Assembly (NCBI GenBank): GCA_026389055.1
Contig: JAPLIO010000214.1
Coordinates: 1-33,448, forward strand
Direction: 5' to 3'
Length of the DNA stretch: 33,448 nt
Source: Candidatus Melainabacteria bacterium
Lineage (GTDB): Bacteria; Cyanobacteriota; Vampirovibrionia; Vampirovibrionales; JAJTHC01
In this document: positions 344-33,448 of the stretch, piece after piece
How the letters are laid out: each line of letters opens with the position of its first letter
How positions within the stretch are numbered: position 1 is the stretch's first letter
Translations under genes and position numbers: made by a program
The notes under the pieces: generated by a model
Databases searched by the model: none
The model's input: the letters and a program-made list of their open reading frames with translations, nothing else
Told to the model about the DNA's origin: nothing

Positions 344-550
344 TAGACCTCTTGCATGACTCGAGAGGTGGGTGCAGATTCTAGGAATGTTGTTTGCCCT
401 GCAAACAGGTTGCTTTAGCAACCAAGAACGGAGAATTTGACGTGTACAGAGAAGTACATAAGAATTCGAGTACCACAAATGACAACGTAAAACGTTCTAC
501 GTTTTCTCGCCCTGCGGATGCCCCAGATATCGAGTCATGCAAGAGGTCTA
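344..550 (+). repeat. Family A palindromic structured element, expanded copy (207 nt)
   Basis: Starts TAGACCTCTTGCATGACTCGAG and ends with the reverse complement CTCGAGTCATGCAAGAGGTCTA. It is collinear with the 146-nt copy at 6506-6651 except for two hairpin-forming insertions at 390-425 and 488-516. Confidence 0.85.
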
Positions 551-649: not shown

Positions 650-1540
650 ATGGAACGGTTTATCAGCTTTTTAAAACGGGGTGCCTACGGTTTAGGCTTC
701 TTCTCTGTAGGACTATTTCTTGTTTGGGCTTGTACCTTTATACCACCTATTGCAGTAAACCCTCTGTTTAAAAGTAGTCATGCTTTTTTTAGTTTACCTT
801 TAACGATACTGTTGCCCACTTTCTTTAAATCCAATCAACAAGGCACATTGTTTCTTTATGCTATTGTTGTTTCCGTAACCTCTTTCTGTTTTGGGCAGCT
901 AGTTGAGCGATTGGAACTCTGGTCTATCAATAGCGAACAACAAAAACAAAAACGAAAAAACTTTACAGGACCTAACCTCATTCAACGCATCAAAGCAATG
1001 ATGATTGATTTAAAGCGGGGTAAGTTAAAATCAGTTACCTCTAAAGGGTTAATAGCATGGCTAACCAACAATAATCAAGCTTGCTATTTTGCTTTAGTCT
1101 CATTCCCCTTTCAAACCAACCGTGCTAAAGGTGAAGTATTTTTTGAATACAACTTCTTTGAAGGTAAAGAAGTTGCTTCGCCTCCCAATACACTACTCAT
1201 CAAATTCCACTCGTTACAACAGGCTATTCAATACGCCAAAAATACCAGCCAACGCCTCAAGCATGCCTATGCCCAAATGCGTCCTTCGGAAGTAAAACCT
1301 GTTTTTAAGATAGCCATCCATCGTAGTTTAGAAGCTGCGGATAGTGAAGCGTTGGCTACATTGCTCAACTTTTGCCAAGAACTTTGTAAAATAGCTTCTC
1401 CATCGCAAGTTATTAGTTCTCACGATGTTTATCTGTCTATTCAGGAAAACAAAAAGACCAAAGCCCCCTGTGAGTTAGTGCCTTTAGGGTTTTATCGGTT
1501 TGCCAGTAGCCCCATGCAAGAAGTGTTTGAAGTGGAATAA
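650..1540 (+). CDS. Hypothetical membrane protein: N-terminal transmembrane segments plus a soluble C-terminal domain of unknown function
   Basis: 296-aa ORF with an ATG start. It has hydrophobic N-terminal helices (GLGFFSVGLFLVWACTFIPPIAV; LFLYAIVVSVTSFCFGQLV). I recognise no conserved family motif. Confidence 0.5.
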   Translation: MERFISFLKRGAYGLGFFSVGLFLVWACTFIPPIAVNPLFKSSHAFFSLPLTILLPTFFKSNQQGTLFLYAIVVSVTSFCFGQLVERLELWSINSEQQKQKRKNFTGPNLIQRIKAMMIDLKRGKLKSVTSKGLIAWLTNNNQACYFALVSFPFQTNRAKGEVFFEYNFFEGKEVASPPNTLLIKFHSLQQAIQYAKNTSQRLKHAYAQMRPSEVKPVFKIAIHRSLEAADSEALATLLNFCQELCKIASPSQVISSHDVYLSIQENKKTKAPCELVPLGFYRFASSPMQEVFEVE

Positions 1541-1737
1541 GCACGCTTTTTTATTGAGAGGATAGACTTTCCTCTTGTATTTCTCCTATGTTTCTTGCTT
1601 AATAAGGGTAAGAAATGCAGGGTACTTTCATTTGCGATAGTACGTTGGTTTCGCTTTTTTTCCCCAGACACCCTCTTGGTGGTTTGTTTGTTGAAAACTC
1701 CCTGACCCCAAAATAATCATAATGGAGCATCCGACTG

Positions 1738-2034: not shown

Positions 2035-2050
2035 CGTTCAGTCATTGAAT

Positions 2051-2096
2051 AAAAACAAAACACGCTTACCTTTTTAGATAAGTGTGTTTTGTTTTT
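2051..2096. terminator. Bidirectional intrinsic terminator between the convergent genes
   Basis: AAAAACAAAACACGCTTA pairs with TAAGTGTGTTTTGTTTTT in an 18-bp stem with one G-T pair and a 10-nt loop. The stem is flanked by A-runs and T-runs, so a U-tract follows it on either strand. Confidence 0.6.
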
Positions 2097-2115
2097 ATTT
2101 AATCTCTCCGTTGGA

Positions 2116-3683: not shown

Positions 3684-4948
3684 CCCAAGTTCATCTTAAA
3701 AATTTTCGCAATATCCCTGAATTAAACTGGGATTGTTCGCCCCATTGCAATTTAATTTTAGGGCAAAACGCCCAAGGCAAAACGAATCTGCTGGAAGCGT
3801 TGTATTTCTTATCGAATACTAAATCCAACCGTAGTTCGCAAGATTTTGAGCTAGTTACTGCGGGCGAATTACCCTGTACCACGCCTGCTGGTTCAGAAAC
3901 AACCCGCAACCCGAAAACAGAAGGGTGCCTTATTCAAGCCAACGTTCAACGCTTGGGGGTTCACACGGTTAGCACGCAATTGGAAGCGAAAATTTTACCC
4001 GCCACCCAAGGTAAAAGCGGATGGCGAACCCAGTTTCGGCTGAACCAAAACCCTGTTAAAAATCGATCTCAACTGCTAGGGCAATTCCCGACCGTTTCGT
4101 TTTATAGTACAGATTTACTGCTGCTTCGGGGCGGGCTACCCCAACACCGCAGGCACTGGTTAGATGCAGCTACTGCTCAACTAAGCCCCTTGCATATTAC
4201 CCATCTCGCCAATTTTCAGAAGGTGTTACAACACAAAAACCATCTGCTTCGCCACCTGCATTCCCCCCACTTATCGGCTGACCAACAGGCCGTTTTAGAA
4301 GTTTTAAACACCCAATTAGCCACCAGTATGGGGCTAGTAATTGCAGGCAGACTTCGGTATTTAGAGGCTTTGGTTCCGCATTTTGAAGCCAGTTACGCCC
4401 AATTGTGTGCCGAAGTTGAAACGTCACCCAGCATTCATTATAAGGTGGCAGGGTTTAGCAAAGTGTTTACCACGAAAACCACCGCTAGCTTAGCCCATTT
4501 GGCTTCGTTAACACCCCAAGCGTGGGAAGGGTTATATCACGACCGTTTAGCCCAAACGCTAGGGTTAGAATGCCAACGCCAGCAGTGCCAAACAGGGCCG
4601 CATCGGGATGATATTAGCGTGGAATTGGGAACGGGGTTATTAGCCAACCGTTTTGCCAGCCAAGGGCAACAACGGAGCCTTGTTTTAGCCCTTAAATTGG
4701 CGGAATTAGCGTTGTTGGAAGGGCATCTTCAAGAAACCCCTGTGTTGTTGTTGGATGATGTAATGGCAGAGCTAGACCCTATTAGGCAGCAGCAATTGTT
4801 ACATCATTTACCGAAGCAGGCACAAGTATTTATTACCACCACGCATTGGGAAGGCGATGCCACGGCGTTGCTTCAAACGCTGCTAAGGGATAATAGCCCG
4901 TTAACAGTTTGGGAAGTTCGCCAAGGGCAATTAACGTTAAAAACGTAA
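3671..4948 (+). CDS. recF: DNA replication/repair protein RecF
   Basis: Walker A GQNAQGKTNLLEA, ABC signature SQGQQRSLVLALKLAE and Walker B PVLLLDDVMAELD. The GTG start overlaps the upstream ORF by 13 nt. At 425 aa it is longer than the RecF proteins I know. Confidence 0.9.
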   Translation: MAIVTQVHLKNFRNIPELNWDCSPHCNLILGQNAQGKTNLLEALYFLSNTKSNRSSQDFELVTAGELPCTTPAGSETTRNPKTEGCLIQANVQRLGVHTVSTQLEAKILPATQGKSGWRTQFRLNQNPVKNRSQLLGQFPTVSFYSTDLLLLRGGLPQHRRHWLDAATAQLSPLHITHLANFQKVLQHKNHLLRHLHSPHLSADQQAVLEVLNTQLATSMGLVIAGRLRYLEALVPHFEASYAQLCAEVETSPSIHYKVAGFSKVFTTKTTASLAHLASLTPQAWEGLYHDRLAQTLGLECQRQQCQTGPHRDDISVELGTGLLANRFASQGQQRSLVLALKLAELALLEGHLQETPVLLLDDVMAELDPIRQQQLLHHLPKQAQVFITTTHWEGDATALLQTLLRDNSPLTVWEVRQGQLTLKT

Positions 4949-4954
4949 CTATAT

Positions 4955-4991
4955 CATCGATTGTTGTTCTCGTCTTTCGCTGGTTGGTTTG
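4955..4991 (+). repeat. Solo copy of the family B 5' module
   Basis: CATCGATTGTTGTTCTCGTCTTTCGCTGGTTGGTTTG closely matches 28939-28975 and the reverse complement of 32606-32642. The rest of family B is absent here. It starts 7 nt after the recF stop codon. Confidence 0.55.
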
Positions 4992-5025
4992 AACTCTTTC
5001 GCTATTCTAACTTTTAATTGATGTA

Positions 5026-5171
5026 ATACCATTTTCAAATAGGGCTAGCGTTAGATGGATATTAGGCACTGGCAAGTAAAAAACCGCAGGCGTACATATA
5101 GGTACGTTGAGGATTTTTTGCTTGATGGTAACAACGTAGACGCTGACGATAGTTCTATTTGAAAATGGTAT
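5026..5171 (+). repeat. Divergent family-A-like palindromic element
   Basis: ATACCATTTTCAAATAG ... CTATTTGAAAATGGTAT forms the closing stem. Inside are a TAGCGT/ACGCTG helix, an A-run/T-run helix and an apical CGTAC-ATATAG-GTACG hairpin. The unpaired blocks ATATTAGGCACTGGCAAG and GATGGTAACAACGTAGA sit where the family A motifs sit. The paired span is 146 nt. Confidence 0.5.
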
Positions 5172-5264
5172 AAGAAGTTGTATTCATTGGGATAGTGCAA
5201 GTAGCCCCTCTTTTTGGTATAGTAAAAACAATTCAACTACTCTAATCATCAGGATGTTTCAGCC

Positions 5265-6251
5265 ATGAAATACAAAGATTATTACGCCGTTTTAGGCGTT
5301 GCACGTTCCGCCAGTGCCAAAGAAGTTAAATCTGCCTTCCGAAAAAAAGCCAAAGAATATCACCCCGATTTAAACCCCCAGCACGCCGAAAAATTCAAAG
5401 ACTTGAACGAAGCCTTTGAAGTATTAGGCGACGAACAAAAACGCAAACGCTACGATACCCTCGGTGCTAACTGGCAAGACGGGGCTAATTTTGACCCTCG
5501 GCAAGCAGCAGGCATGGGGGGCTTTAATGTTGAAGACCTGTTTTCAGGCTTTGGCAGTGGGGGTAGTGCAGGTTTTGGCGGAGCCGATTTTTTTGAATCG
5601 TTATTTGGCGGGCAACAACGGGCTTCCGCCAGTGCAAGAAACCCCTATGCTAGCCAGCAACAAGGAAGGTACCAGCAACAGCAACAAGCTCAACCCAAAG
5701 AAACCAAAGCCCAACTCGATAGCGAACAACCCATCTATATTCAATTGGAAGACGTACTAACAGGCGTTGAACGCAGCTTGTACATTCCGCACCGCAAAGA
5801 AGAAGTCTCCTTCAAAGTACCCAAAGGTATTGAACCCCATCAGCGGATACGGTTAAAAGGGTATGGCAAGGAAAGCACTAGGCAAAAAGGCATTTTTGGG
5901 GATTTGTACTTGAAAGTTACTTATCAAGAACACGCCGTTTTTGAAGTAAAGCCCGCTTCTCATAACTTGTATTGCCAGTTAGAATGCCCACCTTGGGGAT
6001 TTGTGCTAGGTAGCACTCTGAAAATTAAAACCTTAAGCGGCGATTCGTTCGAGCTAACCCTGCCCCCCAATAGTTCAACCGATAAAAAGTTACGGTTAAA
6101 AGGGTATGGGCTACCCGTTATGAAACCCAAAGCGGGCGAAACCGCCACCGTGGGCGATTTAATCGTTCAGTTGAAAGTAGCACTGCCCACCGCACCCACC
6201 AAAGCCCAATTAACAGCCTATGAAGCACTTAAAAAAGCCGATGCCTTGTAA
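5265..6251 (+). CDS. J-domain co-chaperone: type II DnaJ/CbpA-like, no zinc-finger domain
   Basis: The J domain reads YYAVLGV...[19 protein letters not shown]...[16 protein letters not shown] with the HPD motif. A Gly/Phe-rich linker and a DnaJ C-terminal substrate-binding region follow. No CxxCxGxG repeats are present. Confidence 0.85.
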
Positions 6252-6437: not shown

Positions 6438-6468
6438 AAGGGTTTCTTTTGTAAAGAAACCCTTTTTG
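6438..6468 (+). terminator. Intrinsic terminator after tRNA-fMet
   Basis: AAGGGTTTCTTT-TGT-AAAGAAACCCTT forms a 12-bp stem followed by a T-run. Confidence 0.7.
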
Positions 6469-6505: not shown

Positions 6506-6651
6506 TAGACCTCTTGCATGACTCGAGAGGTGGGTGCAGATTCTAGGAATGAGGAACGGAGAATTTGACGTGTACAGAGAAGTACATAAGAATTCGAGTA
6601 CCGCAAATGACAACGAAGATGCCCCAGATATCGAGCCATGCAAGAGGTCTA
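6506..6651 (+). repeat. Family A palindromic structured element, canonical 146-nt copy
   Basis: A roughly 21-nt terminal inverted repeat (TAGACCTCTTGCATGACTCGA / TCGAGCCATGCAAGAGGTCTA) encloses the core GGGTGCA...CTAGGAATGAGGAACG...TGTAC-AGAGAA-GTACA...CAAATGACAACGAAGA...TGCCCC. Confidence 0.85.
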
Positions 6652-12792: not shown

Positions 12793-12821
12793 TTGACAAA
12801 TGGTGTGTATTGGAGGATAAT
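12793..12821 (+). promoter_or_regulatory. Putative sigma70 promoter of the toxin-antitoxin operon
   Basis: Consensus TTGACA at 12793-12798, a 17-nt spacer, then GATAAT at 12816-12821. The predicted transcription start falls on or next to the GTG at 12829. Confidence 0.5.
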
Positions 12822-12828
12822 TAAAATA

Positions 12829-13104
12829 GTGGAAATTCGACTAACTAAATTTGCCCAAAAACAATTTGAAAAAGCCCCTAGCTCCATCCAAGATAAATTA
12901 GAAGATTGGATGATACTGATTGAAGCCGAAGGGCTAGACTTTGCAAGAACCTTGAAAGGGTATCATGATGAACCACTTCAAGGAAAACGCAAGGGACAAC
13001 GGTCTATTCGACTCAATCGTCAATGGCGGGCAATATACGAAGAGTTAACAGGCACAATTATTGAAATACAGGAGATTACTCCCCATGATTACAGAGTTCG
13101 ATGA
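12829..13104 (+). CDS. RelE/ParE-superfamily toxin (HigB-like, toxin-first arrangement)
   Basis: 91 aa from the GTG. The motif LQGKRKGQRSIRLNRQWRAIY...I.EI..HDY matches the RelE/HigB core. It overlaps the downstream HTH gene by 20 nt. The ORF track start at TTG 12793 coincides with the -35 box. Confidence 0.75.
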   Translation: MEIRLTKFAQKQFEKAPSSIQDKLEDWMILIEAEGLDFARTLKGYHDEPLQGKRKGQRSIRLNRQWRAIYEELTGTIIEIQEITPHDYRVR

Positions 13105-13435
13105 TGGTAGCATGCTGGCAAGAGATTTCCTAAAATCCTTAGGAAGACCCGAACCCACAACGGGTAGAGTTATGCGGTCTTGGCGGAAATGCGAAGACTT
13201 GACTCTGGAAACAGTAGCCAAACAATTAGGCATCAGCAAACAACTACTTTCCGCCTATGAACGAGACGAAAAACGCCCTAGCATTCAACGTCTAATGGAA
13301 ATTTGCCAACTGATTGGGATGGACCCCGCCATGATTTTACATTTCCGCATTAAAGATGAAATTCGAGGCTTCGGCTACGAGCTGAAAAAAATTGTGTTAG
13401 AACCCATTCAACCCAAAACAGATAAAGCGTCTTAA
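13085..13435 (+). CDS. XRE-family HTH antitoxin (HigA-like)
   Basis: The HTH reads LTLETVAKQLGISKQLLSAYERDEKRPSIQRLMEICQLIG. The gene is translationally coupled to and overlaps the upstream toxin gene. Confidence 0.75.
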   Translation: MITEFDDGSMLARDFLKSLGRPEPTTGRVMRSWRKCEDLTLETVAKQLGISKQLLSAYERDEKRPSIQRLMEICQLIGMDPAMILHFRIKDEIRGFGYELKKIVLEPIQPKTDKAS

Positions 13436-21164: not shown

Positions 21165-21310
21165 TAGACCTCTTGCATGGCTCGATATCTGGGGCATCTT
21201 CGTTGTCATTTGCGGTACTCGAATTCTTATGTACTTTTGTGTACACCGCAAATTCTGCGTTCCTCATTCCTAGAATCTGCACCCACCTATCGAGCCATGC
21301 AAAAGGCCTA
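21165..21310 (-). repeat. Family A palindromic structured element, 146 nt, inverted orientation
   Basis: Its reverse complement aligns end to end with 6506-6651, with roughly ten substitutions. It begins at the base immediately after the glyQ TAA stop codon. Confidence 0.85.
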
Positions 21311-27653: not shown

Positions 27654-28922
27654 ATGCCCACCGTTTCCCATACCGAAATAGCCATGCCTGCCCTACTGTT
27701 TTTAATGGGCGGCGTATTATTGTTAATAGCCCTAGGTAGCCAAAGCTTCAAAAAACGAGGGCTTTCCCCCGTAGTAGGTGAAATGCTGGTAGGCATGGCG
27801 ATAGGGCCTTTCGGTTTTGGATGGCTTCAGCCCAATTTGGTACTTCATGTACTGGCGGAACTAGGCTTGGTGTTTTTGCTACTTGAAACGGGGCTAGAAA
27901 CCCAAATTGCCAGCCTATGGGCAGCAGGGAAATCTTCCTTAAAAGTAGCCGTTATAGGGGTTGTTTTACCCCTTATTTTAGGTACAGGTATTGGGCTAGC
28001 GTTTCAGTTGCCCCTATTGACAGCCGTTTTAGTGGGGGCAACGCTTTCCGCTACCAGTATTGGTATTACCGCCAAAGCCCTGCAGGAATTAGACCTGCAA
28101 CATCGCCCAGAAACAGCGATTATTCTGGGTGCAGCGGTGATAGATGACGTACTGGGCTTGCTGATTTTAGCCTTATTGCAAGGCTTGTTTTCATCGGCAG
28201 GAAAAGGAACGGAAATCGCCTTCACACTGGCTAATTTAATGCCTTTGTTGGGTATTATAAGCCTTGTTGCTATCGGCTATTGTGGCAGAAACTGGCTATT
28301 AACCGCTGTTTTACCGCAGATTGTTCGGGTAGGTAAGTGGTTCACGAAGAAATTAGTCGTCCCCAAAGATGGGTCTGCTAAAGAGGTTTTCATTTTAATA
28401 GGCGGTATGTTGTGCTTGTTGGCAGGGTTGAATCAAACCATCGGGCTTTCTACGGCGTTGGGGGGCTTTATGGTGGGGCTAGCCCTACAAAAATGGAGCA
28501 ATAATGAACCTCGGTTACAGTCTGTGGTGCAAGAAGTAGGCGTGGTGGGCAGTTTGATGATTCCCTTTGCGTTTGTGAATTTGGGTATGCAACTCAACTG
28601 GAAGCAGCTAATTCCTGTTGATGCTAGCGTGTTTAGCCCTCCGTTGTTGTGGGTGGCGTTGGGGATTACCGTTATTGCCTTTATTAGTAAGTATTTGGCG
28701 GGGTTTGCCGTGCCGAAAGCCAACGGAATGAATCGGTCGTTGATTGGGTTGGGGATGATTCCTCGGGGGGAAGTGGGGTTAATTTTTGTGCAGGTGGGGT
28801 TGAGTGTGGGTGCATTGACTGATTTTTGGGCGAATGTGTTGGTGCTGGCGGTTTGTATTTCCACGCTGATTCCGCCTATTTTGCTTAAAATGGCGGTGCA
28901 AGCAGAAAAGAAGCAATCATGA
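27654..28922 (+). CDS. Cation:proton antiporter (CPA2 / Na+/H+ exchanger family)
   Basis: About 12 TM helices. The motifs LGLVFLLLETGLET and GMIPRGEVGLIF are typical of Kef/NapA-type exchangers. The ATG at 27654 is preferred over the TTG at 27639. Confidence 0.85.
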   Translation: MPTVSHTEIAMPALLFLMGGVLLLIALGSQSFKKRGLSPVVGEMLVGMAIGPFGFGWLQPNLVLHVLAELGLVFLLLETGLETQIASLWAAGKSSLKVAVIGVVLPLILGTGIGLAFQLPLLTAVLVGATLSATSIGITAKALQELDLQHRPETAIILGAAVIDDVLGLLILALLQGLFSSAGKGTEIAFTLANLMPLLGIISLVAIGYCGRNWLLTAVLPQIVRVGKWFTKKLVVPKDGSAKEVFILIGGMLCLLAGLNQTIGLSTALGGFMVGLALQKWSNNEPRLQSVVQEVGVVGSLMIPFAFVNLGMQLNWKQLIPVDASVFSPPLLWVALGITVIAFISKYLAGFAVPKANGMNRSLIGLGMIPRGEVGLIFVQVGLSVGALTDFWANVLVLAVCISTLIPPILLKMAVQAEKKQS

Positions 28923-28938
28923 ATAGTATTTTCTTAAG

Positions 28939-29156
28939 TCGATTGTCGTTCCTAGCTTTCGCTGGTTGGTTTGTCAGGGGGCTGTCGTTTGACAGCCCCC
29001 CGACACCCCCCACAAATTCAGGGGCAAGCCCCTAAAAACCCCCGAAAAAACACCCCCTATGCCACCAGAAGGGCATTGACGGGGGATGCTTTTTTCGCCC
29101 CTTCGGTGGACGAAACGCTGTGCGAAAGACGCACAGGTCGTTCCTACCAGTTGGTC
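28939..29156 (+). repeat. Family B GC-rich structured element, copy 1
   Basis: Aligns with the reverse complement of 32391-32642. Helices include GGGGGCTGTC-GTTT-GACAGCCCCC, GGGGC-AA-GCCCC, CCCCC...ATGCC-ACCAGAA-GGCAT...GGGGG, C-TTCG-G and CTGTGCG-AAAGA-CGCACAG. A 10-nt direct repeat GTCGTTCCTA lies at 28945-28954 and 29137-29146. Confidence 0.75.
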
Positions 29157-30319: not shown

Positions 30320-30371
30320 TTAACCGTGTCTAATTCGCAAAAATCACGATGTTATTTTTTCCTGTTGTTAT

Positions 30372-30551
30372 AGAAGCTGTTTGCATAGTTGTCAAGGAAG
30401 TGCAATTTCTAGGAATGAGGAACGCAATGACGGGCGTGTAGATTAACTACATAACCGAATGTTGATTCCACTGGAATCATTCTGCCGAAGGCAGAAAATA
30501 CCGCAAATGACAACGAAAGTGCCTTGATTGGCGACTATGCAGATAGCTTCT
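30372..30551 (+). repeat. Divergent family A structured element in the pepA leader region
   Basis: It shares GTGCA(A/G)(T/A)TTCTAGGAATGAGGAACG and TACCGCAAATGACAACGAA with the canonical copies. Its closing stem is different but complementary (AGAAGCTGTTTGCATAGT... / ...ACTATGCAGATAGCTTCT). Its apical hairpin is compensated (TGTAG-ATTAA-CTACA). It also has two extra hairpins (TGATTCC-ACT-GGAATCA and TCTGCC-GAA-GGCAGA). Confidence 0.65.
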
Positions 30552-30571
30552 TAGAAAAGTGAGACCCCATT

Positions 30572-32390: not shown

Positions 32391-32642
32391 CAAACCACCC
32401 AGTAGGAACGACCATCGCATTTGCTCTGCAGCTGCCGATGCGTTCCGTCCACCGAAGGGGCAAAAAGAACATCCCGCCGTCAATGCCCTTCTGGTGGCAT
32501 AGGCGGGTGGCGTTTAGGGTGGTTTTTCCGTAGGGGCTTGCCCCTGAATTTGTCCAAAAAAATTAAAAAGCGTGTTGGGGGGTGCCCAAACAGGCACCCC
32601 CCCGACAAACCAACCAGCTAAAGACTGAAACAACAATCGATG
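32391..32642 (-). repeat. Family B GC-rich structured element, copy 2, inverted relative to copy 1
   Basis: Its reverse complement aligns with 28939-29156. It carries compensatory differences in helix 1 (GGGGGGTGCC/GGGCACCCCCC versus GGGGGCTGTC/GACAGCCCCC) and helix 3 (CCCGCC/GGCGGG versus CCCCC/GGGGG). It is somewhat longer because of an A/T-rich insertion. Confidence 0.75.
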
Positions 32643-32709
32643 AAAGAACACGCTATTTAATCTGTGAATCGGCATCCAGCAATAAAGCACAGACAAAAAG
32701 GGGGGTTCA

Positions 32710-33367: not shown

Positions 33368-33448
33368 TAGACCTCTTGCATGACTCGATATCTGGGGCAT
33401 CTTTTTTGTCATTTGCGGTACTCCTTTGGTTATTTAGTTAGTCTAAAC
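33368..33448 (-). repeat. Family A element, partial or interrupted copy at the window edge
   Basis: TAGACCTCTTGCATGACTCGATATCTGGGGCATCTTTTTTGTCATTTGCGGTACTC matches the first ~56 nt of the inverted copy at 21165. After that it diverges, and the window ends. Confidence 0.7.

Follow-up and report, generated by a model that had tools for sequence, protein, structure and literature searches.

Prokaryotic MITEs are defined by a length of 50-500 bp, terminal inverted repeats, flanking direct repeats, a preference for AT-rich intergenic sites and stable stem-loop transcripts (PMC10969869). RUP, Correia, ERIC and some RPEs have TA termini and give long hairpin transcripts (PMC2229807). RUP, which is mobilised by IS630-Spn1, is non-coding and ~100-150 bp long, with terminal inverted repeats and TA at both its termini and its targets; its copies are numerous between genes, and other mobile DNA is among its targets as well (PMC2229807). 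The Correia (NEMIS) elements of Neisseria duplicate TA, have ~24-bp repeats and occur as length variants (107 versus 155 bp), and the long hairpin that they form in read-through transcripts is cleaved by RNase III. ERIC (IRU) of enterobacteria is an imperfect palindrome of ~127 bp with TA termini, is co-transcribed with its neighbours and affects mRNA stability in an orientation-dependent manner (PMC2229807). The RPEs of Rickettsia are palindromes of ~105-150 bp that are tolerated in frame inside conserved protein genes (PMC2229807, PMC10969869). Finally, the cyanobacterial ISY100, of the IS630/Tc1-mariner group, inserts almost exclusively at TA with a 2-bp duplication, and its 24-bp repeats suffice in cis (PMC2170065).

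The element described here, found in a 33,448-nt stretch of Vampirovibrionales DNA (the window), is like all of these in one respect or another. It resembles RUP, Correia, ERIC and ISY100 in such features as size, terminal inverted repeats, TA at termini and targets and length variants, would resemble Correia and ERIC in the hairpin of its read-through transcripts, and, like RPE, has a copy in frame within a protein gene, ribBA. It would work like RUP, Correia, ERIC and RPE but, judged by sequence, belongs to none of them. RUP has a known partner IS with matching ends and no sequence similarity to the Vampirovibrionales element, whose closing stem is far longer than that of RUP and which is further set apart by its conserved asymmetric loops and its optional modules with hairpins. 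Unlike Correia, it has no identified promoter or IHF site and resides in a different host clade; representative Neisseria genomes lack its core 18-mer. Membership of ERIC, REP/BIME or other E. coli repeats was rejected, since blastn found no homology at E ≤ 0.01 in 5,426 E. coli genomes (28 Gb), and a role of RNase E such as ERIC has would be ascribed to the present element by analogy. Most copies are intergenic and no frame is open family-wide, unlike RPE. ISY100 encodes its own transposase, whereas the element here encodes nothing, and the two have in common TA insertion, repeats of about this length and a cyanobacterial host lineage.

The element has the properties of a MITE. Copies are 143-215 bp long, without a transposase gene or a consistently open frame, and end in terminal inverted repeats of ~21-32 nt whose arms are 84-90% complementary within a copy. 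TA lies on both sides, with a single TA at an empty orthologous site and at a restored phage terminase gene, and a TA target with 2-bp duplication is likewise the mark of MITEs derived from IS630/Tc1-mariner. The element is dispersed and polymorphic for insertion. We consider it probable that it represents a new TA-inserting MITE family, mobilised in trans by a putative DDE transposase and carried as a long hairpin in read-through transcripts. The family appears to be undescribed and the kind is familiar, so that the novelty lies at the level of the family; a literature search of limited scope found no paper linking Vampirovibrio or Melainabacteria with MITEs. Its hosts are predatory relatives of cyanobacteria, a narrow group, and the family adds a well-documented MITE to the poorly studied Melainabacteria/Vampirovibrionales. 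Three things place it slightly above the routine: unusually clean insertion evidence (an empty site and a restored phage gene), a tolerated 53-residue insert in RibBA, an essential-type enzyme, and the strand-specific conservation of its fold.

Copies in the window and anatomy of the element

The sequence-only reading had reported four near-identical copies in 33 kb. All four (c1 to c4) are present at the positions and with the covariance-model scores given in the Table; the model was built from 15 copies and used both to score and to find copies, and the complete copies among these four had E-values of 1e-31 to 1e-38, far beyond chance. The count of four was too low, two further copies (c5 and c6) having been missed, so that the window holds six. 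Copies c2 and c3 are 93-94% identical over 146-153 nt, and a further correction concerns c4, whose interior is unlike that of c2 and whose central hairpin is the variant GTTTAG/CTAAAT. Copy c1 is the 146-nt form with two hairpin-bearing insertions; larger ERIC variants were reportedly traced by Wilson and Sharp in 2006 to internal insertions at fixed sites. The parts first described were all recovered, namely the terminal inverted repeat TAGACCTCTTGCATG(A/G)CTCGA, the pairings of GGG(T)GCA with TGCCCC and of GAATT with AATTC inside it, an apical hairpin and the conserved blocks CTAGGAATGAGGAACG and CAAATGACAACGAAGA. The window copies are indeed all intergenic, and Pfam searches of the window ORFs found no transposase.

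Table. Coordinates of element copies, of the parts of copy c2 and of neighbouring features (window coordinates unless a locus is named)
Feature	Position	Strand	Description
Copy c1	344-550	+	Expanded 207-nt form; module i at 390-425, module iii at 487-517; 140 bits
Copy c2 (focal)	6506-6651	+	146 nt; between tRNA-Met terminator and next gene; TA at both termini (6506-6507, 6650-6651); 168 bits
Copy c3	21165-21310	-	146 nt; begins directly 3' of glyQ stop (...AAG TAA^TAGACC), 0 nt after the stop codon; 170 bits
Copy c4	33368-33448	-	5'-truncated by window end; canonical 3' arm and 3' block; 55 bits
Copy c5 (sub-family)	30371-30553	+	Both core blocks and module ii; 18 nt upstream of M17 aminopeptidase gene; 113 bits
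Copy c6 (diverged sub-family)	5025-5172	+	Ends ATACCATTTTCAAAT...; between SMC-like gene and dnaJ-like gene; 56 bits
c2: P1 5' arm (left terminal inverted repeat)	6507-6528	+	Pairs with 6629-6650
c2: P1 3' arm (right terminal inverted repeat)	6629-6650	+	Pairs with 6507-6528
c2: P2	6531-6538	+	TGGG(T)GCA; pairs with TGCCCCA at 6620-6626
c2: 5' core block	6543-6558	+	CTAGGAATGAGGAACG; in large asymmetric internal loop
c2: central arm	6561-6595	+	Stem P4 and apical hairpin P5
c2: P4	6561-6565 with 6591-6595	+	GAATT with AATTC; 5/5 pairs change on both sides
c2: P5	6570-6575 with 6582-6587	+	GTGTAC, loop, GTACAT; 3/6 pairs change on both sides
c2: 3' core block	6599-6619	+	TACCGCAAATGACAACGAAGA; faces 5' block
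Copy at L011			0 and 4 nt from two convergent genes
Copies adjoining fliJ and fliS homologues			0 nt from the gene
Copy at L006			Overlaps SBP_bac_5 stop codon; the element's own TAG is the stop
IS5-family IS, ~1.17 kb	L014 4787-5939; L016 ~4229-5392; L014 7420-8000		DDE_Tnp_1 and DUF772
Terminator-like hairpin	6438-6464		Directly 3' of tRNA-Met
AT-rich hairpin	2044-2103		28-nt arms; after ribosomal protein L25 gene
HigB-like toxin/HTH antitoxin pair	12793-13435		Between 4HBT and SDR genes
Second repeat family, ~200 nt	28922-29118; 32440-32657; also 4954-4991; L009 1330-1583 and 3719-3965; L021 ~1490-1620		Unrelated to the element
In this Table and in the text, ^ marks a junction.

The two additional copies belong to sub-families. 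The ends of c5 are TAGAAGCTGTTTGCATAG... and ...CTATGCAGATAGCTTCTTA, unlike the canonical ends and complementary to each other, and its sister copy (L015) lies at an unrelated locus; c6 is matched at 92% identity by a copy that occupies a different locus in another species (L029). Across the family the terminal repeats are of the types TAGACCTCTTGCATG, TAGACTGGTTGTATTG, TAGAAGCTGTTTGCATAG and ATACCATTTTCAAAT. For c5 the candidate of a riboswitch upstream of pepA was rejected, since the gene that follows the sister copy is unrelated and c5 is bounded by inverted ends of its own.

All copies follow one plan: a central hairpin and an asymmetric, conserved internal loop lie between the terminal repeats, with as many as three optional modules that contain hairpins. 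Between P1 and P2 there is a mismatch loop, GG/AG, which is conserved. The internal loop consists of GGAAUGAGGAAC opposite AAAUGACAAC; part of it (GGAAC with GUACC, UUC with GAA) may pair, in columns that hardly vary. The exact 5' block was found at 12 places in the MAG Vampirovibrio sp. DET50b, where its invariance is imposed by the search pattern, and AAATGACA is retained in all copies not selected on the 3' block, except three old copies. Modules i to iii enter at fixed points, namely after GGAATG in the 5' block (i), before TACCG, just ahead of the 3' block (ii), and after GACAACG, inside it (iii). They occur only inside copies of the element, and the candidate of independent mini-repeats was rejected. 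The sub-families keep the core and differ widely at their ends, a contrast that comes partly from detection, 12 copies having been found by an exact core 18-mer. A kept core with variable ends is the opposite of the usual MITE pattern and counts against the reading as a MITE family moved in trans.

Insertion at TA, distribution and mobilisation

Two syntenic contigs (L024 and L025) share with the window the order dnaJ-like gene, tRNA-Met, terminator and 194-aa gene, and both are empty at the c2 site. They read ...TA^CTACAATAAGG, with a single TA, where the window has TA[GACC...GGTC]TA; the junction is ...TA^CTACAATAAGGTTAC in the contigs and ...TTTAC-TA[GACC...GGTC]TA-CTACAATAAGGTTAC in the window. 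Synteny with these contigs starts exactly at the dnaJ-like gene and breaks at c6 (~5025-5265), which could be a rearrangement breakpoint at the repeat or a coincidence.

The second line of evidence comes from a phage contig (L034; IMGVR_UViG_3300034020_001616, 5.9 kb, IMG/VR), in which an element at 2545-2717 splits a terminase large-subunit gene and sits between an ORF with the N-terminal and an ORF with the C-terminal terminase domain. Removing 171 nt (GACC...GGTC and one TA) gives a continuous ORF of 493 aa (...PREGGII^IKQKWFNYYDP...), which matches the terminase large subunit PHROG 38 in a single stretch over residues 6-470 (E = 1.6e-103). The phage is probably defective, or it shows a possible route by which the element spreads. 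Other genes of the contig, which is a phage or prophage fragment, encode a DNA methylase, a serine recombinase and proteins with DUF5681 and DUF2924.

Together, the empty orthologous site and the exact restoration of the terminase ORF bear out the TA target duplication that had been proposed from the sequence, and 16 copies are flanked as TA...TA, usually AT^TA...TA^TT. Because the dinucleotide is palindromic, such a 'duplication' is indistinguishable from the insertion, 3' of a TA, of an element whose own end is TA, a point against the MITE reading. Mobility and insertion at the TA dinucleotide are shown, and the description of the element as a TA-flanked, MITE-like palindrome of the ERIC/Correia/IS630 kind holds on both the insertion and the fold evidence. 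At the glyQ site, c3 is absent from an 89%-identical relative (L031). The element is missing from all three glyQ relatives (L031-33); since genes downstream are arranged differently in them, they offer no clean junction. A 99%-identical strain has the same insertions.

These observations also bear on whether the repeat could be a fixed feature of the host chromosome, such as a nucleoid-protein or gyrase site of the REP/BIME kind. The intergenic, palindromic copies near gene ends would suit such a site. Its presence and absence at orthologous sites, the copies inside the phage terminase gene and ribBA, the near-identical copies at unrelated loci and in different species and the lack of homology to E. 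coli repeats would not, and we give this explanation almost no credence.

That the element is abundant in its genome, as had been suggested, is indicated by assembly breaks and by at least 12 copies in the related MAG DET50b. Five independent short-read glyQ contigs end 30 nt into c3, which is the expected behaviour of a high-copy repeat. In practical terms, the element breaks short-read assemblies, and strains could be marked by whether or not they carry it.

Homologues of GlyQ and of the DnaJ-like protein assign the window to the Vampirovibrionales/Melainabacteria. Beyond the window, an exact search for the 18-mer TTCTAGGAATGAGGAACG in 596 Gb, with each species represented by one genome, returned 12 matches in DET50b and two chance matches, and the covariance model added three more copies in DET50b loci, for at least 15 in the sampled DET50b loci. 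These do not overlap the window, which therefore stems from a genome related to DET50b. One copy was found in a close relative of DET50b (L029) and a diverged one in a species whose DnaJ-like protein is 80% identical (L021-23). In viral scans the contig L034 was the one true match, four others being chance. The two-block pattern gave a single chance match in JGI metagenomes, plasmids and GenBank phages gave none, and no copy was seen in the DNA examined of the syntenic L024 and L025 or of the glyQ relatives L031-33. A wide distribution was thus rejected, the true matches being confined to a few related Vampirovibrionales genomes and one phage contig; by its sequence matches, the family is restricted to a narrow clade of Vampirovibrionales, with several sub-families.

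Sub-families may also exchange ends. The interior of a copy at L010 6518-6662 is nearly identical to those at L019 5009-5153 and L006 3394-3538, and its outer 20 bp differ at ~9 positions in both arms, all of them compensated, which suggests end-swapping between sub-families or rapid co-evolution of the ends.

In the mechanism that we favour, a DDE transposase would recognise the terminal repeats, duplicate TA and act in trans, with an IS630/Tc1-mariner-type enzyme as the leading candidate partner. An autonomous element with matching ends was absent from the ~300 kb of the window and related loci, where a search for inverted-repeat pairs 0.7-3 kb apart returned only noise. The only multi-copy transposase in a repeated-protein search belongs to an IS5-family IS whose copies are 98-100% identical; its ends (GAAGTTACGGAA...) are unrelated, with only TAGAAG in common with the ends of the c5 sub-family. 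TA insertion with a 2-bp duplication also fits some IS5 sub-groups. Transcription from neighbouring genes would read through the element and yield a long, nearly continuous hairpin of -55 to -88 kcal/mol, and its likeliest effect, by analogy with the action of RNase III on Correia and RNase E on ERIC, would be to alter the stability of adjacent mRNAs or where their 3' ends lie, rather than to serve a dedicated cellular function.

Fold, covariation and the folded strand

Each copy folds as a near-continuous rod of -42 to -88 kcal/mol (z ~ -8 to -11); the RNA of c2 has -63.3 kcal/mol and z = -10.8. In a 21-copy alignment, paired columns hold standard pairs in 94.3% of cells, versus 29-42% after a shift of the partners by 1-3 columns. 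Both sides change in 39 of 47 pairs, and 0 of 500 shuffles matched these observed values. The alignment was fitted to the model, to the advantage of the outer stem in the copies that diverge most; there is no ambiguity in the central helices. For each of the 22 P1 pairs, some part of the family shows changes on both sides. P4 is either GAAUU/AAUUC or AAACC/GGAUUU, and P5 occurs as GUGUAC/GUACAU, GUGUAG/CUACAU, GUUUAC/GUAAAU, GUUUAG/CUAAAU and GCGUAC/GUACGU, always closed by an invariant G.U pair. The rod-like fold is strongly supported, and covariation across the helices backs the 'structured core' of the sequence-only reading.

[quoted passage not shown] Core blocks kept across sub-families with quite different ends, optional hairpins at junction-like positions like the variable domains of RNAs, the invariant G.U pair closing P5 and the strand asymmetry described below all speak for it. 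Yet at gathering thresholds Rfam 15 found only two tRNAs in the window, and at E ≤ 10 it gave four copies, including expanded ones, only weak chance matches, the best of 19.9 bits (gathering 34) and another of 18.7 bits (45); a known RNA family was rejected on these scans, and the absence of a match to any known family in Rfam or the BLAST collections agrees with what had been stated from the sequence. The element is, moreover, confined to one narrow lineage within 596 Gb of genomes and the JGI metagenomes, shows no orientation preference relative to co-directional host genes (~8-9 copies sense, 7 antisense) and lacks a conserved promoter (the match TTGACG-17-AAGAAT of c2 is absent from c3 and other interior types) or terminator across copies. 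Single-copy mutations stand at 2.8% in the 3' core block versus 4-5% in the arms; such similar frequencies in core and arms fit decay after insertion. The disrupted phage gene and the empty orthologous sites are selfish behaviour, and the element behaves like selfish DNA. We regard a structured RNA as clearly improbable, and the implication that the core might form a separate new RNA family was too generous, given the narrow lineage, the lack of orientation bias and the lack of a conserved promoter.

The strand asymmetry is harder to accommodate. In 20 of 22 copies the fold is better on the strand with CTAGGAATGAGGAACG (+) than on the complementary one. On average the two differ by -11.4 kcal/mol, and old copies reach -24 to -32 kcal/mol; for c6 the values are -65.7 and -42.0 kcal/mol. 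G.U pairs outnumber A.C mismatches by 68 to 17 overall and by ~31 to 5 in the closing stems (~15 to 5 when shared events are counted once), counts that are not independent because the copies are related. This bias counts against the MITE reading, since neutral decay of a double-stranded cut-and-paste element gives no asymmetry, and it suggests an additional role for the folded + strand in how the element itself propagates.

One mechanism with such a requirement is single-stranded mobilisation by an HUH/Y1 enzyme, of the REP/RAYT kind or derived from IS200/IS605, in which the + hairpin would be the substrate and the right TA part of the element. It would explain a fold preserved on one strand only, the asymmetric target hexamer (ATTATT, AT^TA^TT, in 7 copies versus 2 reversed) and the finding that the locally G-rich strand carries the + orientation in 11 of 13 copies (loci with absolute GC skew above 0.02), and a related contig carries a TnpB gene. 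The GC-skew association is a hint only, the proxy being weak, and the six window copies point both ways (+,+,+,-,+,-), against a strict replication-strand rule. Nor do the ends have the right form: they are long complementary terminal repeats that pair over 21-32 bp, not two sub-terminal hairpins, and TA is symmetric at both. No Y1/RAYT gene was found in the window ORFs or the related loci. Membership of REP/RAYT or IS200/IS605 was rejected on the ends and the window ORFs, and we hold mobilisation of this type to be very improbable.

More generally, the folded + strand, as ssDNA or RNA, might itself be required, the loop and the covarying rod being selected through a strand-specific single-stranded form; that form might be an intermediate of transposition or an RNA which the element carries and a protein recognises. 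We think this rather unlikely; if true, the element would not be a decayed IS but would represent a class of palindromic mobile elements in bacteria with a mechanism of its own. That the fold is conserved on one strand while orientation to genes is random makes a real, if small, puzzle; if upheld on whole genomes, it would bear on how palindromic elements of this kind move.

Gene context and the ribBA copy

Many copies lie 0-5 nt from gene ends (Table). Since both ends of the element read TA-G, insertion at TAA or TAG would regenerate a stop, and insertions at stop codons would thus be tolerated; this would be a simple reason for the survival of such insertions in a compact genome.

In just 1 copy out of about 24, the element lies in frame within a gene. 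This copy, at L012 6452-6606 in DET50b, is inside ribBA, which encodes 489 aa with the element versus 436 aa in 96-97%-identical orthologues without it, a net gain of 53 aa. In the solved RibBA structure 4I14 a 6-residue loop occupies the place of the insert, immediately before the conserved LVRVHSEC motif, and the insertion allele is represented by two contigs and, among protein clusters, by six member sequences. TA flanks are missing from the ribBA copy, as are the outermost 9 nt of both arms, and these features count against the reading as a TA-inserting MITE. It is the one in-frame case; the corresponding frame has stops in most copies, and RPE-type membership was rejected. A small protein or translatable element was likewise rejected, as no frame is open across the sub-families.

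Several other features of the window were noted. The 4HBT and SDR genes on either side of the HigB-like toxin/HTH antitoxin pair are adjacent in L024 and L025, where a similar toxin pair is found elsewhere in the contigs. Two inverted copies of the second, unrelated repeat family flank a 3.3-kb segment with hicAB, c5 and the M17 aminopeptidase gene, and this second repeat contains GC-rich hairpins such as GGGATGCTTTTTTCGCCCCTTCGGTGGACGAAACGC.
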